A DNA stretch of 64,000 nt. Source: an uncultured Spirochaetales bacterium. GTDB lineage: Bacteria > Myxococcota_A > UBA9160 > SMWR01. Numbering within the stretch: position 1 is the stretch's first letter; every line of letters starts with the position of its first letter. A program made the translations under genes and the position numbers. The notes under the pieces are model-generated. The model did not search any database. It saw only the letters and a list, made by a program, of their open reading frames with translations, and was not told the DNA's origin. This document shows positions 27,039 to 60,120 of this stretch, piece after piece. The stretch covers positions 4,591-68,590 of the forward strand of contig CAZBSV010000181.1 of NCBI GenBank assembly GCA_964494795.1, read 5' to 3'.

Positions 27039-28136
27039 TCAGCTCACCCAGGTGATGTTCGCGTCCGCGATGGCCGGGGTGCGGTCAGCGAGCACGGCGA
27101 GCTTGCGCGCGAGCGTCCCCGCGAGTTCGCGGAAGATCTGCGCGGCCAGCGAATCCGGGGCCTGCACGACGATCGGAACGCCCGAATCACCGCCCTCGAC
27201 GATCCGGGGGTCGATCGGGACCTCTCCCAGAAACGGCACCCCGAGTTCGTCCGCGGTGCGTTTCCCTCCACCTTTTCCAAACAGGTAGTACTTGCGGTCC
27301 GGCAGGTCCGGGGGCGAAAAATACGACATGTTCTCGAGGATCCCGAGCACGGGAACTTCGACTTTCTGGAACATCTTCAGGCCTTTTCGCGCGTCGATCA
27401 GCGACAGGTCGTTCGCGGTCGTCACGATCAGCGCACCGGCGAGCGGCGCCTGCTGGGTCAGCGTGAGGGCAGCGTCGCCGGTACCGGGCGGCATGTCGAT
27501 CACCAGATAGTCGAGCTCGCCCCACTCGACATCCGTGAGAAATTGTTTGACGAGCCCGTGTACCATCGGCCCGCGCCAGATCACCGGCGAATCGTCGGTC
27601 ACGAGAAATCCCATCGACATCACGCGCATTCCGTAGGCGACGTGCGGGATGATTCGCTTGCCGCGCACTTGCGGGCGGCCGCTCACTCCCGTGAGCAGCG
27701 GCAACGACGGCCCGTAGACGTCTGCATCCATCACGCCCACGCTGGCACCCAGGTCGCGCAGCGCGACCGCGAGATTGATCGCGGTCGTGCTCTTTCCCAC
27801 GCCGCCCTTCCCGGATGCGACGGCAATTGTGTTCTTGACGCCCGGGAGTACCTCGGAGGCCGAAGGGCCAAAATTCCGCCCGCGCGTATTCGCGGTCATC
27901 GTCACTTCGACTTCGCGGACGCCCTCCAGCGCGAGAACGCGCTCGCGCGCCGCGCGTTCGAATTCCGCCTTGACGGGACACGCGGGTGTCGTGAGTTCGA
28001 TCGAAAAGGAGACCTTGCCAGCGTCGATGCGAAGCTTCTTGATGAAACCGAGATCGACGATGCTCTTGTTGAAATCGGGATCCATGATCGGGCGCAGCGC
28101 GCCCAGGACATCGGTCTCGCTGACCTGCGGGGGCAT
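27039..28136 (-). CDS. apbC: Mrp/ApbC-family Fe-S cluster carrier ATPase
   Basis: Only the last 365 codons of track ORF 27039..29888 are real, starting at ATG 28136. N-terminal DUF59-like MPPQVSETDVLGALRPIMDPDFNKSIVDLGFIK, deviant Walker A VASGKGGVGKST, and DMPPGTGD. Confidence 0.92.
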   Translation of the reverse strand: MPPQVSETDVLGALRPIMDPDFNKSIVDLGFIKKLRIDAGKVSFSIELTTPACPVKAEFERAARERVLALEGVREVEVTMTANTRGRNFGPSASEVLPGVKNTIAVASGKGGVGKSTTAINLAVALRDLGASVGVMDADVYGPSLPLLTGVSGRPQVRGKRIIPHVAYGMRVMSMGFLVTDDSPVIWRGPMVHGLVKQFLTDVEWGELDYLVIDMPPGTGDAALTLTQQAPLAGALIVTTANDLSLIDARKGLKMFQKVEVPVLGILENMSYFSPPDLPDRKYYLFGKGGGKRTADELGVPFLGEVPIDPRIVEGGDSGVPIVVQAPDSLAAQIFRELAGTLARKLAVLADRTPAIADANITWVS

Positions 28137-28226
28137 GCTTCTCCTCGTGGCTGGGTGGTCGAGCCGTCGGCGTTCCGGGACCCGGGAGACTAGCTCATCC
28201 GGGCCGAGCGGATATATTGCTTCGCC

Positions 28227-30128
28227 GTGGCGGACGCATACGACGACGTGTACCGGCAATCGCTCGCGGACCCCCGGCGATTTTGGGCGGCCGCCGCGCA
28301 GGAAATCGAATGGGTGCGCCGGCCGCGGGCCGTCTTCGACGACTCGACGCCGCCGCGGGTTCGCTGGTTTCCGGGCGCGATGCTCAACAGCTGCTTCAAC
28401 GCGGTCGACCTGCACGTGCTCACGGGGCGCGGCGAGCAGGCCGCGCTGATCTACGACAGTCCGGTCACGGCGACGAGCCGCCGCTTCAGCTATCGCGAAC
28501 TGCAGCTCGAAGTCGCGCGCGCGGCGGGGGCACTCGCGGCGCTCGGCGTCGAGCGCGGCGATTGCGTGCTGATCTACATGCCGATGATCCCCGAGGCCCT
28601 GATCGGGATGCTCGCGACGGCGCGACTCGGCGCGATCCACTCGGTGGTATTCGGCGGGTTCGCGGCGAGCGAACTCGCCCAGCGCATCCAGCACGCCGCG
28701 CCGAAACTGATCCTGACGGCCAGCTGCGGGATCGAGCCCGGCCGCGTCGTCCCCTATCTGCCGTTGCTCGAGGACGCGCTCGATAAAGTCAGCAACAAAC
28801 CCGCGCATTGCGTCGTCGTCAATCGACCCGAACAGCCCGTGGCGCTGCGCGACGGGCGCGATTTGGACTGGCAGGCGATCACCCAAGGCGCGCAGCCGCA
28901 TCCCTGCGTGCCCGTCCCAGCGAGTGAACCGCTCTACATCCTCTACACGTCCGGCACCACGGGCGCACCCAAGGGCGTCGTGCGCGACAACGGCGGCCAC
29001 GCGGTCGCCCTCAAGTGGAGCATGCAGAACATCTACGCGACGCAGCCCGGCGACGTCTTCTGGGCGGCCTCCGACCTCGGCTGGGTGGTCGGCCATTCCT
29101 ACATCGTCTACGCGCCGCTGTTCATGGGCTGCACGACGGTCCTCTACGAAGGCAAGCCCGTCGGCACGCCCGACGCGAGCGCGTTCTGGCGCGTGATCTC
29201 CGAGCACCGCGTCAACACGCTCTTCACTGCGCCGACCGCCATGCGCGCGATCAAGCGCGAGGACCCCTCGGCGGAGTTGCCGAGAAGATTCGACCTCTCG
29301 AGCCTGCGCGCGCTGTTTCTCGCGGGCGAGCGAGCGGATTCCGACACCGTCGAGTGGTGCGAGCGCGCGCTCGGCGTGCCCGTGATCGACCACTGGTGGC
29401 AGACCGAAACCGGCTGGGCGATCGCCGCCAACTGCCTGGGCCTGTCGCCGCTGCCGATCAAGCGCGGCTCGCCGACGAAGGCCGTTCCGGGCTACGACGT
29501 GCGCGTGCTCGACGACGACGGACGGGAGGTCAGCGCCGGCAACATGGGCCACGTCGTCATCAAGCTGCCGCTGCCACCGGGATGCATGACGACACTCTGG
29601 CAGAACGACGAGGGTTTCGAGCGCACCTATCTCGAGCGATTTCCGGGCTACTTCCAGACCGCAGACGCGGGCTATGTCGACGCGGACGGCTACCTCTGGA
29701 TCATGGGCAGAACCGACGACGTGATCAACGTCGCCGGCCATCGCCTGTCGACCGGCGCGATCGAAGAGGCCATCGCCGGCCACCCCGACGTCGCGGAGTG
29801 CGCGGTGATCGGTGTGAAGGACGCCATCAAGGGTCAAGTGCCGCTGGCTTTGCTCGTTCTCAATGCGGGAGTGACGAGCGACCCGCAAACTCTCATAGCC
29901 GAAGTCGTCGCTCGCGTGCGCGAGCAGATCGGTCCCGTCGCGGCGCTCAAACAGGCGTGTGTGGTGCCGCGCCTTCCGAAGACCCGCTCCGGCAAGATCT
30001 TGCGCGGCACGCTGCGCAAGATCGCCGACTCCGACGCGTATCGGACCCCGCCGACGATCGACGATCCGAGCGCGCTCGACGACGCGCGCCGCGCGCTCGA
30101 GGCCCTCGGCTACGCGAAGTCAATCTGA
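28227..30128 (+). CDS. prpE: propionate--CoA ligase
   Basis: 633 aa. Long blocks match PrpE as I remember it: [103 protein letters not shown]. Confidence 0.8.
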   Translation: MADAYDDVYRQSLADPRRFWAAAAQEIEWVRRPRAVFDDSTPPRVRWFPGAMLNSCFNAVDLHVLTGRGEQAALIYDSPVTATSRRFSYRELQLEVARAAGALAALGVERGDCVLIYMPMIPEALIGMLATARLGAIHSVVFGGFAASELAQRIQHAAPKLILTASCGIEPGRVVPYLPLLEDALDKVSNKPAHCVVVNRPEQPVALRDGRDLDWQAITQGAQPHPCVPVPASEPLYILYTSGTTGAPKGVVRDNGGHAVALKWSMQNIYATQPGDVFWAASDLGWVVGHSYIVYAPLFMGCTTVLYEGKPVGTPDASAFWRVISEHRVNTLFTAPTAMRAIKREDPSAELPRRFDLSSLRALFLAGERADSDTVEWCERALGVPVIDHWWQTETGWAIAANCLGLSPLPIKRGSPTKAVPGYDVRVLDDDGREVSAGNMGHVVIKLPLPPGCMTTLWQNDEGFERTYLERFPGYFQTADAGYVDADGYLWIMGRTDDVINVAGHRLSTGAIEEAIAGHPDVAECAVIGVKDAIKGQVPLALLVLNAGVTSDPQTLIAEVVARVREQIGPVAALKQACVVPRLPKTRSGKILRGTLRKIADSDAYRTPPTIDDPSALDDARRALEALGYAKSI

Positions 30129-30180: not shown

Positions 30181-33100
30181 CTAGGGGCGCGCGCGCTGGC
30201 GGCGCCGACGCGCGAGAACCGCGAGCCCGAGCGCGCCGACACCCTGTAGGATCAGCAGATGCGGCTCGGGGACGGCCTGGAGCCGCTTCAGTTGTGCGCC
30301 TTCCACCGAAACCGTCGGCATGCTGATCAGCTGGTAGCCGCCACCGAGTGGCGAACCGAGCACACCGTAAGTCACGCCGACGAGCTCGCCCTCTTCGTTG
30401 ATCGCCCACGCCCAACAGATATCCGACACGCCGTCGTCGAAACTGCAGCGCGCCTCGCCCTCGCCGACCGGGAAGCGCTTCTCTAGCGCCAACATGCCGT
30501 CCTCGAGCTGGTTGAAGACGGCGAGACCGCTGATTCCCTCGGTGGCGTAGACGCGGTTGTCGTGGCTCGAGATCGAGACCTTGAAGAACGCGGTGTTGGG
30601 CGACGCGGCGATGCGCTGGAACTCGACCGGATTGGTTGGATCCTGGATGTCGACGACGAGGAACCCGCCGATCCAGAGCGGCACGAACGCGAGCCCGCCC
30701 GATACCTCCACGTCTTGGGGCACGGCTTCCTGATCCGAGAGCGGAATGTTCGTCGGATTGGTGTCGAGGTGCCCGAGCAGGGCTGGCGCACTCGGGTCGC
30801 TGACGTCGACGATTTGGAGTCCCTCAGTCGATGCCACGTAGGCGAGCAGACGCGGCGGACCCTCGCCCAGTGCGAGATCGAGTCCCACCTGTGAGAAATC
30901 GAGTTCGACCGAGACGGCGAGCGAGGCACCCCAATCTTCGGTGTCGCCAATGGATCCGCGCGGCTCAATCTGGCAGCTGTTCGGCACGCAATCCCCGATC
31001 ACTTCGAAGATCTGCAGCCCCTGCCAATACGAGGCCACATAGAGCATCAGATTCTGTCCGTCCGCGGACACGGAGCCCGCGGCCTCTTCGGCCAACCCGA
31101 ACGGGATCGGGATGCTGCCGCGGAAGCTGGGATTGCTCGAATCCGACACGTCGACGCCAACGACCCCGCAGGCGCCAGCGGAAATCACGGCATCGACTTC
31201 TTCACCCTCTTCGATCAGTTCGACCTCGTCGGCAAAAAAGCCGCCCGGGCACTGGCTGTTGGTGGCTGTGAAGTTGCTCATCGGCGAAGCCGCGTCGCGA
31301 TTCGACACGTTGTGGATGTCGAGTCCGCTGCGCTGCAGCGCGAGATAGGCGCGGTCCTTGGCGTCGTTGATCTTGATCGCCTCGGGCCAATTCGACACCC
31401 CGAACGGCCCGTGAATGACGGGCGTCGGAACCGCGCTGGGCGTCGCCGTGGGAGTGAGAGTAGGCGTCGCAGTCGGCGTGGGCGTCTCCGTCGGCGTGAA
31501 CGTCGGCGTCACCGTCGGAGTGAACGTGGGCGTCGCGGTCGGAGTGAACGTTGGCGTGGCAGTCGGCGTCGCGGTCGGAGTGAACGTGGGTGTCGCGGTC
31601 GGAGTGAACGTCGGCGTGGCAGTCGGAGTTGCTGTCGGCGTGGGTTCCGCGCACTCGTCGGGAACGCCGTTTTCGTCTTTGTCCGAGCTGCCGCCCGCGC
31701 CGGAAACCTCCGAGCAAGCCTTACCGAAACCGAATGGATTCACGTCGCAGGTATCGGCGATGCCATTCTCGTTGCAGTCTGCATCCCAGAACGCGAGCGC
31801 GGGACTCGAGAAAATCGTCACCTCCCCGTCGTCGAGACATGAGGCCACGATTTCGTCCACGCCGATTCCGCCGTCGCCCATGTAGGTAAAGCTCGCTTCG
31901 CCAGCCTCGTCGGTCGTCGCCGAGCCCGAATCGCCAGCGTTCGGTCCCGAGGTGACGTTGAAGCCGACTTCCCTTCCAACCACGGGGTCGACGACGTTGA
32001 TGGTCACCCTCGCGGTGACCGTGTGGCTCGCTCCGGGTGAATTCAGACCCCGATCGGGTGTCAGCGCGACCCGCTTTTCGGCGATGGGATCGAGCGCGAG
32101 TCCTCCCGGGTAGCCATACGAATCGTAAAGCGCAAAACCATACGCGTAAGCGCCAAACGGACGCGGGCAGGACAACACATGCGTACCGGCCGACACCGGC
32201 TGCCGAGCGCCAGAAAATCCACTGCTTCCAATGACCGAGAAGGGCGCTGAAAACGCAGCTCCGTCGATCGTGCAGCTGCCGACATCCAACGTGTCGACCG
32301 CAACGTTGATGTAGTTGCTGAACGCGACAGGCTCGGTCGCAGGGGTGCTGAGCGTATAGCTTCGAAGGAACTGCTCAGTCGGCGGGATCATCATCATGAA
32401 CGGATCCGAACTCACATCGTCCGCAGTCGTTCCCTTCGAGTATTGCATCACCATCACGGGTCGCGTCGCGTCGATCTTGTGGAAGGTGTCCGACGCAAGA
32501 TCAGCCTCGTAGTACGCAGCGCGACCGAGTGTCGCCACGAGAACGCCGTCGATGCGAACTTCGGTTCCGGCGTCCCGCGCGATGATGCGAAACAGATCGC
32601 CTCTGAGCCGGGTCGCGAGGGGCACCGTCAAGAAACTCACGCCCCAGGTTGCCGTCGGTGGCAATTGTTCGACAATGTGGTCACACGCGTATGCGGTTTC
32701 CGGAATATTGATGCATATCGCTCCCCCATAGACCGCCACCGGCTTGTCCGACTGAATGATCGATCCGCTCACGTCCACGGATTGAAGTTGGTAGGTTTCT
32801 AGGCGATCCAGATTGATCTGATAGGGAACTCCCGCGACTCGAATTCCGCTGGAGTTGCTCAGAGTGATCGTGACGGTGGTTTCGTCTTGCACACCGACGA
32901 TCAGCAACTCGGAATTCACGGAAGTTGCGCCGAAGCTCAGCACGAGGTGGTCCGTACCGAGTATGTCGGTCGGAAGCCCGAGGAACGCGTCCGTCGTGTA
33001 CTGGACCTGATTCAAGCCGTACACGACGACGTCCGCCTCGGCAGTCACGCGCACGCCCAGGTTCGCGAATGTGTCGGAATCGAAAGCGCGCACCTCGATC

Positions 33101-33402
33101 GGCAGCAGGACCGAAGTTACGGTACCCGGAACGACATTGAACGGAGCCGAGAATTCGAGGCCGGGAATCTCCACGGTCCCACTCGTGGCGACGGCACCCG
33201 TAATGAAGAGCACGACGTTCCCAAGGCTGCCGTAGGCATTGTCCATGAACCCGAGCACGAACTCGGTTCCCGCGTTGTCTTGCCGGGCAGTTGCGGGCGA
33301 GGTGGCCAATAACCCGGTCGCCAATGCGATCCAAGTCGCAGCGAGAGCGCGCCGAGCGCTTCTCGAACCGCGTCGACCAGGCGAATTCATCGGAGCTGCC
33401 AT
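30181..33402 (-). CDS. large PEP-CTERM-anchored surface protein: IgGFc-binding-like N-domain, Ig-like domain, Thr/Pro linker, LVIVD-repeat beta-propeller
   Basis: 1073 aa. Signal peptide [22 protein letters not shown]-terminal region [11 protein letters not shown]...DKPVAVYGG...DHIVEQLPP...[11 protein letters not shown] linker [22 protein letters not shown].... Repeats [33 protein letters not shown] and [15 protein letters not shown]-terminus [30 protein letters not shown], i.e. PEP motif, TM helix and Arg cluster. Confidence 0.8.
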
Positions 33403-33650: not shown

Positions 33651-34610
33651 TTGCCGCGGGGCGAACGCTGCTGGCCTGGAAGCTTCGGGGCGCGCGCATC
33701 GAGCAGCCGCGAAAGGATCTGTGTGTCGGACCAGACAGCGAATTCCCCCGACGCGCCGGGGTCAGAACGAGCGCTGATTTCCTCGGACCCGCCGGGGTCG
33801 AAAAAGGCGCCGATATCCCCGGGCCGGCCGGGGGGCGGCCGCCGTGCTTCGGGCAGGGCGGCGGCAGGGCTCTGGCCGGCTGGCCGGGCCCGCTGGTTGC
33901 CGCTCGCGTGTATCGGCCTCGCCGCGGCGCTCGCTAGCCTCACAGCGCTCTGGGTCTCGCGTTCGATGACCGGCGAGGCCCGCGACGGCCTCGAAATCAC
34001 CACAGCGGCAACGCGCGACGAGAAGCCCCCTCTCAGCGACGCGCAGCGCCGCGAAGCCGCGCAGAGGGCGCGATTCACAGCCGTGCGCGACGCGCTGCTT
34101 GCGCTCGATCCATCGCGTCTGCCGGGTCTTGCGTCCGAGAGGGACAGAGCTGGACTGAGTGCTCGCGTCTGGACGCTTCCCGACCCGGTCGAAAACGATG
34201 CGATTTACCGCGTGGGAATCGAGGCGGATTGCGCGTGCTCGGCGCTGTTGTTTTCCGTGAGCGCGACGAGCGACGAAATTGCGCTCCTCTACCCAAATTT
34301 GTTTCAGATCAATTCGCGGCTCGAGGCGGGCGCGCCGGTCGAGGTGCCGTCGACACCGGAGTGGACGCTGCGGGCGGTGGGTGGCGAAGGGGTGGATGTG
34401 CTCGAGCTGCTGATATTTTCGGAGCCGCCCGCATTTCCGAGTGATCGCAGCTCGAGCTGGCTCGCCGCGCCCGACCGGCCGGATCGAATCGCGGAACTCG
34501 AAGCGCTGCTCGAGGCGCTCCAAACCGGCGAGTGGGGTGTTGCGACGACGACGCTCCGGATCGTTTCGAGCGCGGTCGGGAATGCAGCGCCCCTGCGCGA
34601 ACCGCTTTGA
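33651..34610 (+). CDS. membrane-anchored DUF4384-like protein
   Basis: Low-complexity N-terminus, one TM helix (WLPLACIGLAAALASLTALWV), then IYRVGIEADCACSALLFSVSATSDEIALLYPNLFQINSRLEAGAPVEVP...GEGVDVLELLIFSEP, which fits the DUF4384 pattern (YRVGE..., LLFPN, AG..V.P). The start is uncertain: TTG 33651, or GTG 33723 after GAAAGGA. Confidence 0.6.
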   Translation: MPRGERCWPGSFGARASSSRERICVSDQTANSPDAPGSERALISSDPPGSKKAPISPGRPGGGRRASGRAAAGLWPAGRARWLPLACIGLAAALASLTALWVSRSMTGEARDGLEITTAATRDEKPPLSDAQRREAAQRARFTAVRDALLALDPSRLPGLASERDRAGLSARVWTLPDPVENDAIYRVGIEADCACSALLFSVSATSDEIALLYPNLFQINSRLEAGAPVEVPSTPEWTLRAVGGEGVDVLELLIFSEPPAFPSDRSSSWLAAPDRPDRIAELEALLEALQTGEWGVATTTLRIVSSAVGNAAPLREPL

Positions 34611-34783
34611 AACGCTTGAAAATGCGTGTTGACAGCGAGCCCGTGGGTTGGTCCAATGCTCCGGCGTCGCGCGCGGATCCGCGGCAGCGCAGGCTGCCTA
34701 GCCCGCCCGCGAGTGACGCTGCAGAGCATGCGCGGGCAGCCTGGAAGTGTTTCTCGCCAAGCAGCGCCCTTCGAAGCTGCTGG

Positions 34784-34898
34784 CGATTGATTGGACGATT
34801 GATTTGACGATTGACTGGGCGATTGATTTGACGATTGACTGGGCGATTGACTGGCCGATTGATTGGGCGATTGACTGGACGATTGACGATTGATTGGA
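34784..34898. repeat. 12-bp tandem repeat, about 9.6 copies (CGATTGAYTKGR), immediately upstream of the TPR/beta-barrel gene
   Basis: Direct reading gives units at 34784, 34796, 34808, ..., 34887. Each carries TTGAYT. The array ends 7 nt before ATG 34905. Confidence 0.95.
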
Positions 34899-34904
34899 GA
34901 GTGG

Positions 34905-36482
34905 ATGGAGGACGGGACCTTGCGATTGCAGTTGCACGCCGGCCAAGCCAAGCGGCCGCGCCGAGGCGGATGGCGCTACATCGCGCTCGCACTCGCGACC
35001 GCGGCGCTCGCGCAACCCGCCGCGGCGTCGGTGAAATCCGAGATTGCCTTTCACCAGGGCGTCGTCGCGTTTGGCAGCGGCGATCTGGCTGCCGCCCAGG
35101 CGGCCTTCGAAGCGGTGCTCGCCGAAGACAGCGACGACGCCGCGGCGATCCACTACCTCGGCCTGATCTCCGCGGAGCGCGGAGATTTCGAAGCGGCCGC
35201 CAGCCACTACCAGCGCGCGCTCGAACTCGATCCCGACGACGTCGACGTCCGCTTCGATCTCGGCTCCGCGCTGCTCGAATCCGGCAAGACCGCCGAAGCC
35301 AGGCGCGAATTCGACCAGGTGCTCGCCGCGGAGCCCGACCGGGCGCGCGCGCAGCTGTTTGCGGGCATCGCCGCCTACCGCGCGGGCGCCTACCGCGAGT
35401 CGCTTCCGTTTCTGGCTCGCAGCGTCGAGCTCGATGGCGAACTGCGCCCACAGGCCCTCTACTACACCGGCCTGTCGCAGGCGCACCTGCAGGATTTCCC
35501 GGCCGCCGCGGGCGCGTTCGCGCAAGTCGAGCAGTCACCGCTCTCGCCACTGTCGGACTCCGCGCGCAATCTCGCTCGCCAGGTCACGCCGAGCGCCGAG
35601 CCGGCGCGGCGCTGGACGCTCGGAGCTACCGCCGGACTGGAATACGACAGCAACCCGACGATCGCGGGAGAAACGCTCCCGCAACACCAAGACGGTCGCG
35701 GCGTCTTCCGGATCGAGGGCAGCTATCTGCTCTACGAAGACGAACGCTATTCGGCGACCGCGGGCTACGACGCCTATCTCAGCGCGCACTTCGACCAGAC
35801 CTTCGTCAACCTGATGACTCACTCGGGTTATCTCGCGACGGCCGCGGATTTCGATCCCGTCACCTTCAACCTGCGCTACGACTACGCGTACACCTGGATC
35901 GACGCGTTTGACACGAAAAAGTTTCGTGAGCTCCAGCGCGTCACGCCGTCGGTATCTTATCGCGAAGGCGACTGGGGGTTCAGCCAGGCCTACTACCAGT
36001 TCCACCACGAGGACTTCAAACGCCCGCTGCTGACGGATGCGCTGAACCGCGACGGATATCGAAACGTCGTGGGATTCAATCAATTCTTCTTTCCGGGTTC
36101 CTATCTCCCGGAATCTGTGCCAATTACCTACTTCCGGCTGGGTGCGCTCGGGGATTTCCAACGCACCGACGGCAGCGAGTTCGACTACGATTCCTGGGAG
36201 TTCTCGTTCGGCTTTGGCGCGGAACTCCCGTGGGAGATCGATCTCTCGATCCTGTATCGCTTGACGGAGCGCGACTATCGGAACCAGAGCGTGTTTTCGA
36301 CTCCGCCGAACAGCGAGATACGCGATGATCTGCAGAACCGCCTGACTCTCGAACTCAACAAGGCGATCGGCGATCACTGGCAGGTCGCGGTGGCGGGTTC
36401 GTTCACCTTTGACGACTCGAATGTCGCCCTCTATGACTACAATCGCGAGATCGTGGGTGGCTATCTGACGTATCGTTTCTAG
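34905..36482 (+). CDS. outer-membrane protein: N-terminal TPR domain plus C-terminal beta-barrel (Slam/DUF560-like architecture)
   Basis: ATG 34905 follows GGAGAG. Signal peptide WRYIALALATAALAQPAAAS. About 4-5 TPRs (AAAIHYLGLISAERGDFEAAASHYQRALELDP...). The roughly 290-aa C-terminal part has alternating amphipathic strands (WTLGATAGLEYDSNPT, FRIEGSYLLY, ATAGYDAYLSAHF, ...VAVAGSFTFDDSN) and ends with the OMP-type terminus GGYLTYRF. Confidence 0.7.
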   Translation: MEDGTLRLQLHAGQAKRPRRGGWRYIALALATAALAQPAAASVKSEIAFHQGVVAFGSGDLAAAQAAFEAVLAEDSDDAAAIHYLGLISAERGDFEAAASHYQRALELDPDDVDVRFDLGSALLESGKTAEARREFDQVLAAEPDRARAQLFAGIAAYRAGAYRESLPFLARSVELDGELRPQALYYTGLSQAHLQDFPAAAGAFAQVEQSPLSPLSDSARNLARQVTPSAEPARRWTLGATAGLEYDSNPTIAGETLPQHQDGRGVFRIEGSYLLYEDERYSATAGYDAYLSAHFDQTFVNLMTHSGYLATAADFDPVTFNLRYDYAYTWIDAFDTKKFRELQRVTPSVSYREGDWGFSQAYYQFHHEDFKRPLLTDALNRDGYRNVVGFNQFFFPGSYLPESVPITYFRLGALGDFQRTDGSEFDYDSWEFSFGFGAELPWEIDLSILYRLTERDYRNQSVFSTPPNSEIRDDLQNRLTLELNKAIGDHWQVAVAGSFTFDDSNVALYDYNREIVGGYLTYRF

Positions 36483-36519
36483 CAATCGACGCGCAAACAA
36501 CAGCGAGAGGAGAGAGAAA

Positions 36520-37464
36520 ATGCGGAATATGCGGACTGGAACTTCTGAGCTGAGACGGATCTTTCTCTGCACGGCCAGCTTCGGCGCGTTCGCCTGCCTT
36601 GCGGGAAGTGCATGGGCGGCGAACGACGCGCGGCTGACAGCCGTGAAAGGGGATGCGTCGATCTCGGCTGGCGCACTCGACAGCCACAGCGAACTCGCCG
36701 ATGGCGACGATCTCGAGACCGGAGACGAGAGCGGTTGCTCGATCCTGTTGGATCAGAACGCCGTGGTGGAACTCTGCGGTCAGACCCGGATCTCGTTCGC
36801 GACCGACGAGAAGCGCGGCAACCGGATCGTGAACGTCGAATCCGGCAAGTTGCGCATGGTCGTCGAGCCGCGCTCGCCCGGCGAGCGGATCGAAATCCAC
36901 ACCCCGGCGGCAATCGCGACGATCCTCGGGACGATCATCTACATATCGGTCGACCCGATTACCGGCGAAGAGACCTTCACCTCGTCGGACAGCCGGGTCA
37001 ACATTCGCGACCGCGACGAGGTGGACTGCACGCCGATCGGGCTTCCCGCAGAAGCGGGAATACCGCGATGCGCCGAGGGCACCACGATCGGTGGCCTCGA
37101 ACAGCTCACCGTGGTGCCGGGCGAGAAGCAGCGCGACAAGAAGAGTGTCGACGAACAGGAACTCGCGCAGCTCGGCGGCTGCCTGTTCGACTTTCACGAA
37201 CTCGCGGCGCGCATCGATCGAGCGGCCCAGGAGAGCAAGTCGACCGACCGCATCGTCGCGATCGACGTTGCTGTCGCGGACCTGCCGCCGGTTTCCCTCG
37301 AAGAAGGACCGTCGATCGAAACGGAGAGCGGCGACGACCTCGACGCGGAAATCAATCCGTTCGACGACTCCAGCCAGGAAGAGCTGATCCGGGAATCGCT
37401 CGCGCCGGATACGGATATTCCCGACTGCGGCGGCGGCATTCCGGGCGAGCACTGCGACTTCTGA
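36520..37464 (+). CDS. secreted FecR-domain protein
   Basis: 314 aa. RBS GAGGAGAGAGAAA. Signal peptide FLCTASFGAFACLAGSAWA. FecR-like beta region LTAVKGDASISAGA...LADGDDLETGDESGCSILLDQNAVVELCGQTRISF...VESGKLRMVV...IHTPAAIATILGTIIYISV. Acidic C-terminal half ending CGGGIPGEHCDF. Confidence 0.7.
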   Translation: MRNMRTGTSELRRIFLCTASFGAFACLAGSAWAANDARLTAVKGDASISAGALDSHSELADGDDLETGDESGCSILLDQNAVVELCGQTRISFATDEKRGNRIVNVESGKLRMVVEPRSPGERIEIHTPAAIATILGTIIYISVDPITGEETFTSSDSRVNIRDRDEVDCTPIGLPAEAGIPRCAEGTTIGGLEQLTVVPGEKQRDKKSVDEQELAQLGGCLFDFHELAARIDRAAQESKSTDRIVAIDVAVADLPPVSLEEGPSIETESGDDLDAEINPFDDSSQEELIRESLAPDTDIPDCGGGIPGEHCDF

Positions 37465-37682: not shown

Positions 37683-40600
37683 CTACAGCACGCCCGAGAA
37701 GATGAAGTTCGCCCAGATCAGCGGTCGATGGATCCCGAGTCGCGTCTCGCTCTCGAGTTGGGCGAGCTGCGCCGCTCGCAACGCCTCTGCGCCGCGAAGT
37801 GCGTCCGGCTTCGAGTCTTCGGAGACCAGCGCCGCGTAGAAGCTCCGCATCATCCGGCTCGTCGCAGCGTCGTTGCTGCGCCACAGACTCGTGACGAGCG
37901 CCTGGGCGCCCGCGGCGCGGAACCCCCAGCGAAGCCCGAGAATCTCCTGACCCCGGAGCGCCAATCCCGTCCCGGTGTCGCAGGCCGAGAGCACGACGAG
38001 GTCGGCGGCTTCGAGGTCGAGGCCCGCGACCTCGTAGGCGGTCAAGATCCCGCTCTCCGCTTCGGACTCGACCCGTGTCGGCCGATTCGCGCCCGCGAGC
38101 ACGATCCCGGACATGAGCAGCGGATTGGGTGCGATCGGCCGCTCGCGCAGGTTTTCGCCATCAGCGGCCTGCGCGCAACCCGCGTTGCCCGCAAAATAGG
38201 CGTGCGTCGCAAAGTGGAGCAGGCGGGGCCGTGACGCGAGTTCGGCCGCGAGTCGCGGCTTGGTGACCTCGGCGCCGAGCAGCCGGCGCGGCTCCACGAG
38301 CAGCTCCGCGATGTCGTCGAGTTCGCGGCGCGTGGCCGGGAGTTCCTCGAATGCCGAAAGCTGACACGGTCCCGTGTCAGTCAGAATCACGGGGCCGCCG
38401 TTTCCTGCGCCGCCGAAGTCCGGCGCGCCCACGAGCAGCGATCGTTCGAGCGCGCTTGCACGACCCTTCTCGACCGATGCCTCTGCGAGTTCGTAGGCCG
38501 AGGTGAGATACCCGACGGTCACGCGTTCCAACAAATAGCGATTCGGGTCCGCGGGGTCGGGCAACACGCCGATCGGAATGCCCCAGAGCGAACCGTCCGG
38601 AATCACGAGCCAACGCTCGACTCCGGCGAGCGAGGCCATCAGCGGCTCGAGCACGATGCGACTGAGTTCGACTCTCGCGATCGGCTCATCCATCCGCTGG
38701 TCGCGCATCGCGGTCGCGAACTGCTCGGCGAATTGCTGCAGCTCTGCGCCGTTGCCGAGGTCGACCCGGCTCACCCGACATCCGTCAGCCCGAACGATCA
38801 GGGCCGCGTACGCGGGGGCGGTCTCGAAGGCACTGCCGCTGGAAGTCCGGTCATAGGCGATGAAATTGATCAGAGCCGCATCGGCGGGAAGGTTGCGGCA
38901 GGCGTTTTTCAAAACACTCGACGGGTCGTCGGCCGGACGCACGGCGCCTTGGGTGCCCTGCAACACCTCGAGATTCTCGATCGACGCCGCGAGCGATTTC
39001 ACGCGCTCTGCGGTGTCGGGTCCGCGACCGAGCACCGCCGCCACGTAGCGGCGCCGCAACTCGTCGAGTTCCGGCGCAAACTGGGCGTCGCTGCGCGCGA
39101 CGGCCCTTCGCGCGGCGATGCTGCGCAACACGGAATCGCGGTGCGGGAGCAGATCCAGGAACAAGATCTTCGGATCGCTGTCGCGAACGGACAACAGCGC
39201 GCCGATCACCTCGTGACTGTCCTGGGACAAGAGCGCCCGCTGGCGATCCGAAATCGCGCCGAAGGTCCGCTGGGAAAATACCAGGATCGAGCGCGAAGCC
39301 TGGGTCGATTGTTCACTCGCGACGGCGTCGTCCCCCTGCGCGAGCGCGATCTTCGCCCGGGTCGTGCGCGCGCGTGCAACCAGCGGATGCTCCGGGCCGA
39401 GGGATGCCGACAGGACTTCGATCGCGCGATCGATTTCCGACGCGGCCTGGTCGAGTTTTCCGCGTTGGGCGAGCAACTGGGCGATCGCGAGACGCGTCGG
39501 CGCGAGATCGGGATGATTGGATCCGAGCGCGCGTTGCTGCGCGGCGAGCGCCTGCTCGAGCAGCTGCTGCGCGCGATCGCCCTCGCCGAGCTCGAATTCC
39601 ATTCGCGCCTGATTGCGCACCGCCGACGCGACACCCGGGTGATCGTCTCCCAATGCCGCGCGAAGACCCGCAACCGCGGTGGCGTACTGATCGGCCGCAG
39701 CACGATCCTTCGCCGACCCCCAACGAGCGAGTGCGCGATTGGTCTGAACCGTGATGGTGTCGACGCGCTCATCTCCTCCTGGTGTATCTCGCAAGATCTC
39801 GAGCGCCGACGCGAAAGAGCGATCGGCGCTCTCCCAGTCCCCGATATCTGCCTGCAGCACGCCGATCGCGTTCTCGGTTCGCGCGGTCTCGGCGTGCTTG
39901 GGCCCGAGAACCGCACGCCGCAGCCGCAGGGTCTCGCGATACGCGGCGATCGCCGCCGGAAAGTCGCCCGCCAGCCGGTAGGCGTCGCCCTGGAGCTGCA
40001 AGACCGCCGCCGTCGAGGGGTGATCGCCGCCGTAGCTCGCGCGATGACCATCGAGTGCGTTTTCGAGATGGATCAGTGCGTCTCTAGGCGATCCCAACAG
40101 CAAATTGGTGTAGCCCAGAGTCTCCTCGTACTCGGCGCGGTCCGCAGGTCGGCTCACCGCGGACTCGAGGCGATCGAGCTGCACGGCGGCCTTTTCGAGA
40201 TCGCCAGCGTCTGCGTAGAGGCGCGCGTAGTCGATCCGATTCGCGGTGGCGCCGACCTCGGCGGCGAGCTGTTCCGCGATCGCTGCCTCCCGGATCGCCT
40301 CGTCTCGCTTGCCGAGTTGGAGCTGGATCTTCGCGAGCAGGTCGTGAAGCTTCATCCGCTCGGCGGCGCTCTCGGGCGCATCCGCGTGTTCGCTCGCGAG
40401 TAGCGCCGCTTCGAGCGCCTGGCGGTAGAGGGCGCGCTCGTAGAGTTGCAGCCCGACCGAGAGATGTTGCTCGTAGCTGATCTCGGGAAGCCGGTCGCGA
40501 TCGGCTGCAGGTGCGGGCGTGCACGCGCGCAGCGCTTTGAGCGCCCGACCGACCGCGGGATCGGTCGCGCGCTCCGACCCGCCAGCCGACTCGGGCGCCC

Positions 40601-40790
40601 GGGTCGAGCTGCCCACGTACAAGCGCACGAGTTCCGCGGTCTCGTGGTCCGCGCCGTACTCGGATTCCACGGCGGCGAGGAGTTCTCCGAGAACGGCGTT
40701 CGCGTCACCACCCGACGTGCAAAGCTCCGCGGCCCGACGCGTCAGCTCGACCAGATCCGCGGATTCCGCGTCGACGCGGAGCGGGACCAA
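37683..40790 (-). CDS. TPR-repeat CHAT-domain protein (caspase-fold peptidase family)
   Basis: 1035 aa. The N-terminal 650 aa or so are KLC-type TPRs (LGDDHPGVASAVRNQARMEFELGEGDRAQQLLEQAL, LGSNHPDLAPTRLAIAQLL, LGPEHPLVARARTT...). The C-terminal CHAT domain has a His/Cys dyad context LLHFATHAYF ... DLVVLSACDTGTG ... GAQALVTSLW. The start is uncertain (TTG 40790). Confidence 0.85.
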   Translation of the reverse strand: MVPLRVDAESADLVELTRRAAELCTSGGDANAVLGELLAAVESEYGADHETAELVRLYVGSSTRAPESAGGSERATDPAVGRALKALRACTPAPAADRDRLPEISYEQHLSVGLQLYERALYRQALEAALLASEHADAPESAAERMKLHDLLAKIQLQLGKRDEAIREAAIAEQLAAEVGATANRIDYARLYADAGDLEKAAVQLDRLESAVSRPADRAEYEETLGYTNLLLGSPRDALIHLENALDGHRASYGGDHPSTAAVLQLQGDAYRLAGDFPAAIAAYRETLRLRRAVLGPKHAETARTENAIGVLQADIGDWESADRSFASALEILRDTPGGDERVDTITVQTNRALARWGSAKDRAAADQYATAVAGLRAALGDDHPGVASAVRNQARMEFELGEGDRAQQLLEQALAAQQRALGSNHPDLAPTRLAIAQLLAQRGKLDQAASEIDRAIEVLSASLGPEHPLVARARTTRAKIALAQGDDAVASEQSTQASRSILVFSQRTFGAISDRQRALLSQDSHEVIGALLSVRDSDPKILFLDLLPHRDSVLRSIAARRAVARSDAQFAPELDELRRRYVAAVLGRGPDTAERVKSLAASIENLEVLQGTQGAVRPADDPSSVLKNACRNLPADAALINFIAYDRTSSGSAFETAPAYAALIVRADGCRVSRVDLGNGAELQQFAEQFATAMRDQRMDEPIARVELSRIVLEPLMASLAGVERWLVIPDGSLWGIPIGVLPDPADPNRYLLERVTVGYLTSAYELAEASVEKGRASALERSLLVGAPDFGGAGNGGPVILTDTGPCQLSAFEELPATRRELDDIAELLVEPRRLLGAEVTKPRLAAELASRPRLLHFATHAYFAGNAGCAQAADGENLRERPIAPNPLLMSGIVLAGANRPTRVESEAESGILTAYEVAGLDLEAADLVVLSACDTGTGLALRGQEILGLRWGFRAAGAQALVTSLWRSNDAATSRMMRSFYAALVSEDSKPDALRGAEALRAAQLAQLESETRLGIHRPLIWANFIFSGVL

Positions 40791-40834
40791 ACAGAGCGCG
40801 AGGACGATCGGCGCGAGTCGCGGCAGGGACGGGA

Positions 40835-41374
40835 TTACGGCTGCGCTCCCAGGTTGATCAGTTCGACGCGTCGGTTTCGCTGCCGACCCGTCGGGTCGAC
40901 GTTGGTCGCAACCGGAGCCGACTCGCCGCGCCCGACGGTTTCCAGCCGCGCGGAGGGAACACCCGCGCCCACGAGGAAGCGCTCGACCGCTGCGGCCCGT
41001 CGCTGCGACAGCGCGTCGTTGTACTCGGCCGCGCCCGCGCTGTCCGTGTGTCCTTCGACGGAAAACCGGAAGGCGGCGAGCTCCTGCGCGGAAAGCGCGA
41101 CGCCGACGCGTTCGAGCAGCACGACGGAGTCGGACTGGAGCCGATCCGAATCGAATTCGAAGTAGACGGGAAGCCGCAACGTCGGCGGTGCACCGGGCTC
41201 GATTCTCGTGCCGCGCGCCGGAGCCAGCGCCTCGATGATGTCTTCGGTCTGGATCGACAAGGCGTCGGCCGTCGTGAGGTCGGTCACGGCCGGGGCATTT
41301 TCCTGCGAGCGTGCAAGCGTCGAAGAACCAGACAGCGCGATTGCGACCACGAGCCAGACGAAATCGAAGCGCAT
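40835..41374 (-). CDS. small OmpA-C-like (peptidoglycan-binding) periplasmic protein
   Basis: 179 aa. Signal peptide FVWLVVAIALSGSSTLARS, then an OmpA_C core: VYFEFDSDRLQSDS...FSVEGHTDSAGAAEYNDALSQRRAAAVERFLV...GRGESAPV...GRQRNRRVEL. Confidence 0.88.
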   Translation of the reverse strand: MRFDFVWLVVAIALSGSSTLARSQENAPAVTDLTTADALSIQTEDIIEALAPARGTRIEPGAPPTLRLPVYFEFDSDRLQSDSVVLLERVGVALSAQELAAFRFSVEGHTDSAGAAEYNDALSQRRAAAVERFLVGAGVPSARLETVGRGESAPVATNVDPTGRQRNRRVELINLGAQP

Positions 41375-48906: not shown

Positions 48907-49015
48907 TCGGAGACTGGGCGTACGCCGAAGTCAAGGGCAGCGCTTGATCGGAGATTGCGCGTCGATCAGAAGTCGAGCGCGGCGCTTGATCGGGAGATTG
49001 CGCGTCAATCAAAAA
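48874..49015. repeat. tandem repeat of about 41 bp, about 3.3 copies, beginning inside the last 10 codons of serC
   Basis: Copy 1 is TGGGCATACGCCGAAATCAAGGGCAGCGCTTGATCGGAGAC (48874-48914, containing the serC stop at 48904-48906). Copy 2 is nearly identical (48915-48955). Copies 3 and 4 are degenerate. Each carries the small hairpin ATCAAG-n7-CTTGAT. Confidence 0.85.
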
Positions 49016-50502
49016 TCAACCTGGAAGCGCATCTCCGCGATATCCGAATCACCGTCGACGTCGAGTACGATCGGCGGGCCGAGCAGCGTTCGATCCCGCA
49101 AGCTCGAGTGCACGTAGTTCAACAGCACCCGCGCGTTCGGGTAGAGATACCAGTTGAGGCCCGCGGTCATCGACCAGAGCGTGCCGCCTTGGATCATCTG
49201 GTCGTTGAGGTCGACGTAGCCAAAGCGCGCGGCGATCTCCCACGCCCCCCAGTCCCCGGTCGTGGGATTGAAGTTGGCGCGCGGGCTCACGCGTCCGAAT
49301 TTGCCCTGACCGAGAAGGTAGTTCTGGTGCTCTCCGGTGAGGAAGAGGCCGGCTTGTGCGTATGCGCCCCAGAAATCCTCGTTCTTGCCCGTGTAGGCGT
49401 CCACGAACGCATGGCTATAGGATCCCTGGAACGAAGCCGGCCCCCACACCATCGCCAGTTCCGATAACACGATATCCGTATCATCGGCAGGAATGCTGGT
49501 TCCGGTATCCGCAAAATTCGGGGCGAGATGCGCGTCCGGGCGCCGAGAAAATTGCTGCATCGCATCGTGGTCCTGGAATCGATGCGAGTAGGTAAGACCC
49601 AGGTGAACGACGCGCTCGCCTTTTCCTTCGTAGAGCGGGACCGCCGCCAAGCGGCCCGTCACGCGCCAATCGTCGTCATCGTCGAACGAAAAGCCCGAGG
49701 AATTGGTGCGCTCGAAGACTCCGAGCTGCCACAACAGGCGCTGATCGAGAACCGCATTGGCGGCCAGGGCGCCGACGCTGCGCGCGGGCGCGGAATACTC
49801 GGCCAGTGAGTCTTCCAGGAAGATGTCGTCGTTACTGTTGGTCTGCTGTTCGAGCGAGTACGGCTCCTTCATCTGACCGACCGTCACAGTGCCAATCGGG
49901 CCGAGGTTCTGCAGTCCGACGTACATATCGGCCAGGCTGACGTCTCCACTCCCCGTGTTGGCAAACTCGAGCTGGGATTTGAAGAACAGATTTTCCCAGA
50001 GCGTACCCGAGAAGAAGATCCGCGCGCGTCGAAATTCGGTTCCAGATCCGTTGGAGCCGAGCGCGTTGTCGATTTCGTCAGCGGCGTGGATGTACGCCCA
50101 GTCGTTCTGGATTCGACCGCCGAATTTGAGCCGCAGCGCGCCGTCCTCGCGATCGAGCTGGAATCCGTTGTTCCAGTTGAAGTTCCAGTCGCCCGCTGCG
50201 GGCTGTTCGACGGCCGCTTCCTGTGTAGCGGGCGCGGCGTTTTCGACGACCACCGCCGTGGCCGCGGCCGCGCGCTCGACGGCAGCGTCCACGCGTTCGC
50301 GCTCTTCCGCGCGCGCTCGCTCCTTCAGGGAGCGGTATTTTTCCGCGTCGATCATTCCGGCCTGGAGCAGGATGTCGAGCAGCTCTTCGGTCACGCTGCC
50401 TTCCAGCGCAACATCGTCCGCCATGGCCAGCCGCGGCGCGACAGCGATTGCGAGCGTGGCGATAAAGCTCGCCAGCAGGGTCGATCTGAAAAACCAACGC
50501 AT
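49009..50502 (-). CDS. phosphate-selective porin O/P family outer-membrane protein
   Basis: ATG 50502 follows GGAGGAG. Signal peptide MRWFFRSTLLASFIATLAIAVAPRLAMA, a coiled segment, then FGGRIQNDWAY, FRRARIFFSGTL...FKSQLEF, LADMYVGL, GQMKEPYSLE, GLNWYLYPNARVLLNYV, and the terminus MRFQVDF. Confidence 0.82.
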   Translation of the reverse strand: MRWFFRSTLLASFIATLAIAVAPRLAMADDVALEGSVTEELLDILLQAGMIDAEKYRSLKERARAEERERVDAAVERAAAATAVVVENAAPATQEAAVEQPAAGDWNFNWNNGFQLDREDGALRLKFGGRIQNDWAYIHAADEIDNALGSNGSGTEFRRARIFFSGTLWENLFFKSQLEFANTGSGDVSLADMYVGLQNLGPIGTVTVGQMKEPYSLEQQTNSNDDIFLEDSLAEYSAPARSVGALAANAVLDQRLLWQLGVFERTNSSGFSFDDDDDWRVTGRLAAVPLYEGKGERVVHLGLTYSHRFQDHDAMQQFSRRPDAHLAPNFADTGTSIPADDTDIVLSELAMVWGPASFQGSYSHAFVDAYTGKNEDFWGAYAQAGLFLTGEHQNYLLGQGKFGRVSPRANFNPTTGDWGAWEIAARFGYVDLNDQMIQGGTLWSMTAGLNWYLYPNARVLLNYVHSSLRDRTLLGPPIVLDVDGDSDIAEMRFQVDF

Positions 50503-50681
50503 CGCCGTTTCTCCTCCACCTCCTCCAGGCAGCTGCGGAACATCGATTCGGCGGCGCAATACCAATGCAAAGCGCGTCCGCGCCAATGAATCCGACAACC
50601 CCCGCACGCTTCGATCCGAAATCAGCTGGCCGCAATCCTAACGCGCAACCGTTACTCTTTCACGACGATCTGGACGGAAAA

Positions 50682-59776: not shown

Positions 59777-60120
59777 TCGGTCACCTCGGGCACCTTCCGG
59801 TCCTGTCAACGGCCGGTTCGTCGCCTATCAACGACCGGTTCGTCGCACGAGACGCAGCTGAGCGCGACGAAGTCGGTCGCTCGATCCAGCGGCATCTCGA
59901 AGACGCTGTGGTGCAATTCCCTCATCGGATTTCTCGGCCAGCCACTTGAGTGAAAAACGGGCGAAGTTGATCGTGCGTAAGCGAGTCGCGCTTGAGTTGC
60001 GCGTTGCCGGTTCGGCTTCGCCGTTGCCGGTTCGGGTTCGCGATCGGGCCGCTGCGCGCGATGCTTCGCGCGGCCTGCCGCCCGCGCGCGCAAGCGTCAA
60101 CTTGCGGGTCCCGCGGGCCG

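Follow-up and report, generated by a model that had tools for sequence, protein, structure and literature searches.

What does a tetratricopeptide repeat (TPR) protein with a C-terminal outer membrane beta-barrel do when its neighbors are sensors and a protease? This question is raised by a gene on the plus strand at positions 34905 to 36482 of a 64,000-nucleotide stretch of contig CAZBSV010000181.1 (here referred to as the window), which was assembled from an uncultured bacterium deposited as Spirochaetales and placed in Myxococcota_A by GTDB. A first-pass annotation, made from the letters of the sequence, had noted that the gene product resembles Slam-type (type XI) translocons in architecture and had proposed that it could export the product of an adjacent gene. 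We found that the protein is part of a large DUF560/Slam superfamily branch that has no name and that, within its family, a secreted FecR-fold protein is always encoded alongside it. It probably helps to carry signals across the cell envelope. The features discussed are listed with their coordinates in Table 1.

The TPR-barrel protein is a remote relative of the Slam proteins

The reading frame of the barrel gene is free of stop codons over 525 codons, ends in GGYLTYRF*, and has a G+C content at third codon positions (GC3) of 0.80 compared with 65% G+C for the window. The protein starts with MEDG...RPRRGGWRYIALALATAALAQPAAA, followed by SVKSE after the predicted cleavage site; a basic stretch, a hydrophobic core and cleavage between AAA and S make this N terminus read as a Sec signal peptide. 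Pfam TPR families strongly match residues ~45-190 (TPR_2, 1.1e-19; TPR_16, 1.6e-19). In an AlphaFold2 (AF2) model, which was based on an alignment of 50 family members and has a mean predicted local distance difference test (pLDDT) score of 82.3, nine helices corresponding to four TPRs and a cap occupy residues 43-194, a low-confidence linker spans residues 196-231, and DSSP assigns exactly 14 beta-strands to residues 237-524. Thus, translation, Pfam and AF2 agree on the succession of signal peptide, TPRs and a beta-strand region ending in YLTYRF that had been read from the sequence. They also agree with the proposed Slam-like architecture of a periplasmic TPR domain and a barrel in a protein of 525 aa, including the count of 14 strands, which is the number that characterizes Slam barrels (PMC5449769 and PMC8406197). 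Two antisense open reading frames (ORFs) overlap the gene (34309-35550 and 35535-36572), and their translations are Arg/Pro-rich products of high G+C content.

Among the Foldseek matches in the PDB that consist of a barrel only, the best were the 14-strand barrels of CymA, OmpG and FadL, with template modeling (TM) scores of 0.53-0.74 on the target. A sequence search of the PDB with the barrel profile gave nothing meaningful, and tblastn with the barrel against plasmids gave chance matches only. Public data contain one protein that is identical (P0001) and, at E ≤ 1e-3, 241 homologues; almost all of them come from metagenomes or metagenome-assembled genomes carrying the labels Myxococcota or Deltaproteobacteria. 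Within the barrel, the motifs GxEYDSNP, which lies at the first strand and loop, and RYDYAYT are under strong conservation.

The sole specific, i.e., nongeneric, Pfam matches of the protein were to two Slam models, and both were below threshold. SlipAM (PF04575) scored 19.4 bits on the full-length protein (cut-off, 22; E 8e-4; residues 418-515) and 20.9 bits on the barrel alone, and TPR_Slam (PF24575) scored 30.6 bits (cut-off, 35.2). Among the family members, TPR_Slam matched 43 of 50 proteins and SlipAM matched 13 of 25 barrels (best, 2.6e-7), with every other barrel family matching at most four. Searching the barrel profile against 1.84 billion representative proteins returned 2825 clusters at E ≤ 1e-3, including 162 at E ≤ 1e-30, and these are mostly proteins of ~500 aa with the barrel at the C terminus. 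SlipAM matched 30 of 76 distant members (best, 1.8e-10) and BBP2_2 matched 22; one distant member, P0160, scored 36.1 bits with SlipAM, i.e., above the cut-off. Moreover, plasmid pAMI5 of Paracoccus aminophilus carries, beside a FecR gene, the gene for a TPR protein that is a member of an alphaproteobacterial family (A5), in which 14 of 32 members match SlipAM (best, 3.5e-10) and one is called DUF560 by its source. Species with A5 proteins appear in a published list of Slam-containing bacteria (PMC5449769, supplement). Using hhalign, the window barrel family (A2) aligned with A5 at 97.7% (E 1.4e-12) over 278 columns, corresponding to the whole barrel.

Based on the sub-threshold Slam matches, the SlipAM matches across the family and the alignment of A2 with A5, we conclude from sequence comparison that the TPR-barrel protein is a remote yet genuine DUF560 relative that lies outside Pfam's own threshold. 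Accordingly, the relation to DUF560 that had been suspected from architecture holds in that the two Slam models are the best specific matches and in that homology can be traced via A5; it does not hold at the level of the profile cut-offs, which neither model reached. We found neither an absence of DUF560 matches nor a fold unlike that of Slam, the combination that the first-pass annotation had named as contradicting its proposal. The published survey of DUF560 proteins defined ten sequence clusters, analyzed only the host-associated one in depth, and mentions neither FecR nor cyclases.

The barrel gene is followed by a gene for a secreted FecR-fold protein

A ribosome-binding site of the GGAGAG type precedes the FecR gene, which starts 37 nt past the barrel stop codon. 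To describe synteny, window proteins were compared with 27 related loci using tblastn, and one apparent exception was checked by eye. In all 23 of the 23 loci with downstream DNA of 300 nt or more, a FecR-type gene comes directly after the barrel gene, and the two genes are mostly separated by 8-140 nt or overlap. This synteny strongly supports the earlier suggestion that the FecR-domain protein is a dedicated partner of the barrel protein.

An alignment of 44 FecR homologues (A4) revealed a common layout of a signal peptide without a lipobox, a FecR domain, an acidic and poorly conserved tail, and a C-terminal Cys-loop motif, C-(G)GGIPGEHC-x-F, that comes after an acidic disordered stretch; a divergent clade (L021 and L022) has the variant CGVPPERGCIP. 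We know of no sorting signal that matches this motif. The AF2 model of the window FecR protein (pLDDT 78) contains a beta-sandwich at approximately residues 37-198, helices at residues 212-252 and a disordered tail; the 8-stranded barrel domain that typifies Slam cargo is missing. Significant Foldseek matches of this protein in the PDB were solely to the periplasmic domains of anti-sigma regulators (4m0n, the anti-sigma factor BDI_1681; 6ovk, PupR together with the signaling domain of an outer membrane transducer). Therefore, FecR-fold domains are known modules for periplasmic contact with outer membrane barrels. The window protein has a predicted cleavable signal peptide and is without the transmembrane anti-sigma part. 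In a tblastn search of plasmids with the FecR protein, the one match was weak and mapped to an operon of Eleftheria with the order RR-FecR-CHASE2 and without a barrel gene.

Genes for a DUF4384 protein and a periplasmic CHAT protease are conserved neighbors

The single-pass membrane protein encoded upstream of the barrel gene (hydrophobic segment, WLPLACIGLAAALASLTALWV) has an uncertain start, either TTG at 33651 or GTG at 33723. A DUF4384-like gene lies upstream in 13 loci, and its product carries a fused Ser/Thr kinase domain (Pkinase) at loci L002 and L003, whereas in L004 the fusion is to a guanylate cyclase domain (Guanylate_cyc). The DUF4384 protein had also been considered as cargo of the barrel; it is membrane anchored and more likely a signaling partner.

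A convergent gene for a TPR-CHAT protein of ~1050 aa is present in 16 of the 19 loci with enough DNA, and in 11 related loci it is preceded by a gene for an OmpA-like protein. In the window protein, the catalytic His/Cys motifs HFATHA and LSACDTG are intact. Homologues of the CHAT protein begin with signal peptides. The window ORF as listed starts at TTG 40790, and a signal peptide (IPSLPRLAPIVLALCLVPLRVDA) is encoded in frame upstream of this position, after the OmpA-like stop codon, with no ATG, GTG or TTG upstream of it (40788-40837, minus strand). Judged from these codons, the CHAT start is likely noncanonical, i.e., either ATC at 40835, which overlaps the TAA stop codon of the OmpA-like gene (TAATC), or CTG at 40826. 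Such a start suggests that translation of the CHAT gene is coupled to that of the OmpA-like gene. Because all module proteins have export signals, all five are extracytoplasmic.

Csx30 proteins, which are substrates of the TPR-CHAT protease Csx29, in some cases have DUF4384 as their C-terminal domain (bioRxiv 10.1101/2022.08.17.504292). By analogy with this precedent from type III-E CRISPR, the DUF4384 protein is a candidate substrate of the CHAT protease. PADLOC found no defense system in the window, and we therefore rejected an anti-phage role for the CHAT protein.

The gene for the LVIVD protein is divergent from the module and is a recurrent, not a universal, neighbor, found at about eight other loci; relatives lie near the module in L003, L006, L007, L010, L011 and L018. 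In the two most divergent loci, L022 (11957-17761) and L023 (6439-10914), a giant LVIVD/PEP-CTERM gene replaces the CHAT gene directly after the FecR gene and in the same orientation.

The barrel-FecR pair recurs in distant lineages, and NsrA combines similar parts

For the wider superfamily, we inspected the neighborhoods of a small sample of approximately 10 loci, in which the barrel-FecR pairing was present in three of the four other subfamilies sampled. In cluster 3, the gene order is barrel-FecR-CHASE2 in L029 and barrel-FecR in L028, L032 and L033; in cluster 10, barrel and FecR genes are followed by an unknown gene and a gene for a CHASE2-guanylate cyclase (L034); and in cluster 17, a FecR gene follows the barrel gene in L035. 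Among cultured Alphaproteobacteria, the order barrel-FecR-CHASE2 cyclase is found on Paracoccus pAMI5 and Shinella p1. The FecR partners of these two differ from the window protein in their C-terminal regions. Residues 533-622 of the Paracoccus protein match TbpB_B_D with 22.1 bits (cut-off, 26; E 2e-4) and FHBP_C with an E of 2e-3, both below threshold, and the only PDB sequence matches of the Shinella protein (849 aa) were to NHBA/GNA2132 and fHbp, over residues 731-848 and likewise below threshold (E 0.04-0.26). A query with a CHASE2 histidine kinase was swamped by generic kinase matches. Secreted FecR proteins paired with CHASE2 sensors have been noted in a biofilm operon of Burkholderia (PMC5192318).

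A protein from Sinorhizobium meliloti unites the same kinds of domains in a single chain. Based on the pSymB record and Pfam, NsrA (SMb20775; 1197 aa), which is encoded upstream of cyaK, contains a FecR domain at residues 66-160 and TPRs at residues 417-531. It is a beta-barrel protein of the outer membrane, with the barrel at aa 600-1200 (PMC7529298), and is needed for perception of a plant signal via the CHASE2 cyclases CyaK and CyaD1/D2 (PMC7529298 and PMC13001267). Methylocystis likewise has a single protein of ~1200 aa composed of FecR, TPR and a C-terminal half that is encoded upstream of a CHASE2 cyclase gene. The TPRs of NsrA align with those of A5 (hhalign, 80%; E 1e-5).

A proposed split NsrA-like module for signaling across the envelope, and its alternatives

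Based on the company of sensor kinases and cyclases in the conserved context, the periplasmic CHAT protease, the FecR fold of a partner that in the window is without a cargo-type domain, and the precedent of NsrA, in which the parts are fused, our favored reading is that the barrel protein is the outer membrane half of a split NsrA-like trans-envelope signaling module, and we give this reading about an even chance. In such a module, the TPR domain and/or the barrel would bind the FecR protein, possibly via its acidic tail and C-terminal Cys-loop-Phe motif, so that the pair would amount to the single NsrA chain in split form. An event at the outer membrane would be relayed by the periplasmic FecR domain to an inner membrane partner, through the periplasmic domain of the latter; this partner would be the DUF4384 protein in the window, a DUF4384-kinase or DUF4384-cyclase in close relatives and a CHASE2-cyclase in distant ones. 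In this lineage, the exported TPR-CHAT protease, held near the wall by the OmpA-like protein, would add a proteolytic step and may cut the DUF4384 or the FecR protein.

Several observations weigh against signaling as the role of the barrel protein. The extracellular loops predicted in the AF2 model are short (5-14 residues), which is unusual in a ligand-binding receptor, and Pfam recognizes neither a kinase nor a cyclase domain in the window DUF4384 protein, such that a signal output is not evident. In cluster 8 (P0154; L037), no FecR gene neighbors the barrel gene. All characterized DUF560 proteins are exporters and not signal transducers (PMC8406197 and PMC5449769). Finally, hhalign of A2 or A5 against NsrA or its Methylocystis homologue gave no barrel match, in comparisons with single-sequence targets for which sensitivity is low. 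In the absence of detectable barrel homology, the parallel to NsrA is, therefore, one of parts and not one of proven common descent.

Export and signaling may be combined: with the FecR domain at work in the periplasm, the tail of the FecR protein may be held or threaded by the barrel. A stricter version, which we consider unlikely, is a threaded surface receptor made of two pieces, the barrel and the FecR protein, in which cleavage by CHAT follows an outside signal. Here, the FecR domain would stay in the periplasm in contact with the DUF4384 or CHASE2 sensor domain, and the acidic tail would pass through or plug the 14-strand barrel, thereby exposing or locking the C-terminal Cys-loop; the part exposed in Alphaproteobacteria would be the TbpB-like domain. 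An outside signal would alter this arrangement, upon which TPR-CHAT would cut the FecR or the DUF4384 protein.

The reading closest to the first-pass annotation is that of a type XI (Slam-type) translocon that moves the FecR protein, or another neighbor such as the LVIVD/PEP-CTERM protein, to the surface or into the medium. In this reading, any signaling would come afterwards, with the exported protein acting as a surface receptor. The reading overlaps with our favored one, and translocation may form a step within it. The homology to DUF560-containing families with the same layout of TPRs and 14 strands argues for it, and each characterized DUF560 protein exports the product of an adjacent gene (PMC5449769 and PMC8406197); nevertheless, the window protein itself stays below the SlipAM threshold. 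The weak matches of the alphaproteobacterial FecR partners indicate that these proteins end in a Slam-cargo-like region of the 8-strand barrel type, but all of these matches are sub-threshold, and the window FecR protein does not have such a domain. It does carry a signal peptide and is without a lipobox, and its conserved C-terminal motif could be a recognition signal; in L022 and L023 the giant PEP-CTERM gene is next in the same operon. On the other hand, FecR domains are known to serve as modules for interactions in the periplasm (6ovk), and in NsrA the domain lies on the periplasmic side of the barrel. Taken together, we regard a dedicated translocon as possible but doubtful.

If neither transport nor a relay took place, the barrel could anchor a periplasmic TPR platform that tethers the CHAT, FecR and OmpA-like proteins at the outer membrane and cell wall. 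TPR domains are general protein-binding scaffolds and are present in both the barrel protein and the CHAT protease, the module includes an OmpA-like peptidoglycan binder, and the surface loops are short. However, the pairing with FecR persists in loci without CHAT and OmpA (L022, L023, L029, L034, Paracoccus and Shinella), and a structural role leaves the strongly conserved barrel motifs such as GxEYDSNP unexplained. We consider a scaffold very unlikely. A polysaccharide export porin of the PgaA/BcsC/AlgE-AlgK type is extremely improbable, and we rejected it based on strand number and gene context. BcsC ranked first by E-value (6.6e-13) among the Foldseek matches in the PDB, yet with a TM score of 0.32 and a root mean square deviation of ~24 Å, which reflects the shared TPR-plus-barrel layout only. 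The barrel has 14 strands as opposed to 16 in PgaA-like barrels (PMC8406197). NCBIfam TPR models for PgaA, BcsC and PrsT matched weakly, with scores far under their cut-offs. A PMT_2 glycosyltransferase gene lies downstream of the barrel gene in one distant subfamily member, but the conserved neighborhood contains no glycosyltransferase or polysaccharide genes.

Comparison with known systems

Like the Slam proteins of the type XI secretion system (TXISS; Slam1 and Slam2 of Neisseria meningitidis, and NilB and HrpB of Xenorhabdus), the barrel protein combines a signal peptide, a periplasmic TPR domain and a 14-strand barrel in ~500 aa, has its partner gene directly adjacent, and shares remote sequence homology. 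It differs in scoring under the Pfam cut-off, in occurring in uncultured Myxococcota-like bacteria rather than in host-associated Proteobacteria, and in having a FecR-fold partner without a TbpB-like 8-strand barrel or a lipid anchor. Moreover, its neighbors are sensors and a protease instead of TonB-dependent receptors, and export is putative.

With NsrA, the co-receptor acting with CyaK, CyaD1 and CyaD2, the module shares a FecR domain, TPRs and an outer membrane beta-barrel, as well as the position of the gene immediately beside that for an inner membrane sensor enzyme with a periplasmic domain, with the caveat that for the system described here the enzyme domains are seen in relatives. Unlike NsrA, in which FecR, TPR and barrel follow one another in one chain, the FecR and TPR-barrel proteins are separate. 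In addition, the barrel of NsrA is ~600 aa, the sensor domain of the NsrA system is CHASE2 instead of DUF4384, and the periplasmic CHAT protease is an addition of the present module.

FecA-FecR-FecI and PupB-PupR-PupI also pair a periplasmic domain of the FecR fold with an outer membrane barrel that has a periplasmic extension, and regulated proteolysis is plausibly part of the pathway in both cases. By contrast with these systems, the module has no TonB-dependent transducer and no N-terminal signaling domain, its FecR protein is soluble, and its output in relatives is a kinase or a cyclase; among the module genes scanned with Pfam, we found neither a TonB-dependent receptor nor an extracytoplasmic function (ECF) sigma factor. 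The Csx29/Csx30 pair of the type III-E CRISPR 'Craspase' resembles the module in the genetic linkage of a TPR-CHAT protein to a DUF4384 protein and in the presence of the His/Cys motifs. It differs in that the protease described here is exported to the periplasm and has no CRISPR context.

Studies of DUF560/Slam proteins have concerned the export of surface lipoproteins and haem-binding proteins in pathogens, and most of the family is uncharacterized. Searching the literature for FecR together with CHAT, DUF4384 or CHASE2, we found no description of the present module; we therefore rate the family and fold as known in outline and the partner, context and likely role as new. The data suggest that a large DUF560 branch, with thousands of representative clusters and including cultured Paracoccus and Shinella, is wired to FecR proteins and to inner membrane kinases and cyclases. 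This links the type XI barrel mechanism, perception by CHASE2 and DUF4384, and the make-up of NsrA. Paracoccus and Shinella are genetically tractable organisms that bear the barrel-FecR-cyclase link. The apparently periplasmic location of a caspase-like (CHAT) protease is unusual for that enzyme family. If the threaded receptor existed, it would represent cell-surface signaling independent of TonB and sigma factors, in which an export pore has turned into a signal transducer, and it would explain how CHASE2-type sensors perceive the outside. To our knowledge, the ligands of these sensors have been unknown since their first description.

Other features of the module region and the window

Table 1. 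Features of the barrel gene, its product and the neighboring genes (positions in the window)
Feature	Position	Strand	Basis
TPR + 14-strand beta-barrel outer membrane protein, 525 aa	34905..36482	+	translation, Pfam, AF2, Foldseek, hhalign
Signal peptide of TPR-barrel protein (residues 1-41)	34905-35027		
Four TPRs and capping helix of TPR-barrel protein (residues 43-194)	35031-35486		
Disordered linker of TPR-barrel protein (residues 195-236)	35487-35612		
Barrel of TPR-barrel protein (residues 237-525)	35613-36479		
Tandem repeat, nine copies of a 12-nt unit (GATTGAYTKGVC)	34780..34887	not assigned	Tandem Repeats Finder (TRF)
Secreted FecR-domain protein, 314 aa	36520..37464	+	Pfam FecR 1.6e-8, alignment A4, AF2, Foldseek
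Single-pass membrane protein with periplasmic DUF4384-like domain	33651..34610	+	Pfam DUF4384 21.4 bits (cut-off 27), tblastn
TPR-CHAT (caspase-like) protease, periplasmic; convergent with FecR gene	37683..40835	-	Pfam CHAT 2e-58, TPR_12 4e-40
OmpA-like peptidoglycan-binding protein with signal peptide; immediately upstream of CHAT gene	40835..41374	-	Pfam OmpA 1.4e-21
LVIVD surface protein, 1073 aa: IgGFc_binding, LVIVD repeats and PEP-CTERM anchor	30181..33402	-	Pfam

The 12-nt tandem repeat has a TTGAC/TTGAT core in each copy, and 17 nt separate the end of the array from the barrel start codon. In a pattern search, 7 overlapping matches were obtained compared with 0 expected. Upstream of the barrel orthologues in L006 and L007, the repeat is absent; it could serve as a regulator-binding site in repeated form or as a promoter element prone to slippage.

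In the loci discussed above, we also observed that the LVIVD proteins of L022 and L023 bear MopE-type metal-binding motifs, and that PEP-CTERM proteins flank the FecR-CHASE2 operons in L029 and on a plasmid of Eleftheria terrae (L030); the PEP-CTERM proteins may be targets or cargo. On two rhizobial plasmids, Shinella p1 (L042) and one from Ensifer (L043), genes for FecR and CHASE2-cyclase proteins adjoin those for an NHLP-type bacteriocin export system and cyclic-nucleotide-binding proteins; on the Ensifer plasmid, the TPR and FecR genes are short (~105 and ~220 aa, respectively) and divergent from the cyclase gene.

The rest of the window is ordinary chromosome, with genes for AlaRS, IspG, DnaB, MurC, ApbC, ThiE and MoeA. 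Based on tblastn patterns in L004, L008, L015, L016 and L020, the 949-aa ORF at 27039-29888 (minus strand) is over-extended: only the C-terminal ~370 residues correspond to an ApbC/Mrp iron-sulfur (Fe-S) carrier, and the rest lies antisense to a genuine acyl-CoA synthetase gene at 28227-30128 (plus strand). Side by side are genes for a 1261-aa protein that weakly matches the PilY1 beta-propeller (56024-59809, minus strand) and a 702-aa protein containing two PilZ domains (59992-62100, plus strand); the former may be an adhesin at the tip of a type IV pilus and the latter a receptor for cyclic di-GMP (c-di-GMP). Finally, the gene at 50565-52277 (plus strand), which adjoins a gene for a phosphate-selective porin O/P (49009-50607), encodes a protein with strong matches to the lipase maturation factor domains LMF1 (1e-60) and LMF1_C (1e-47), a family known mainly from eukaryotes.

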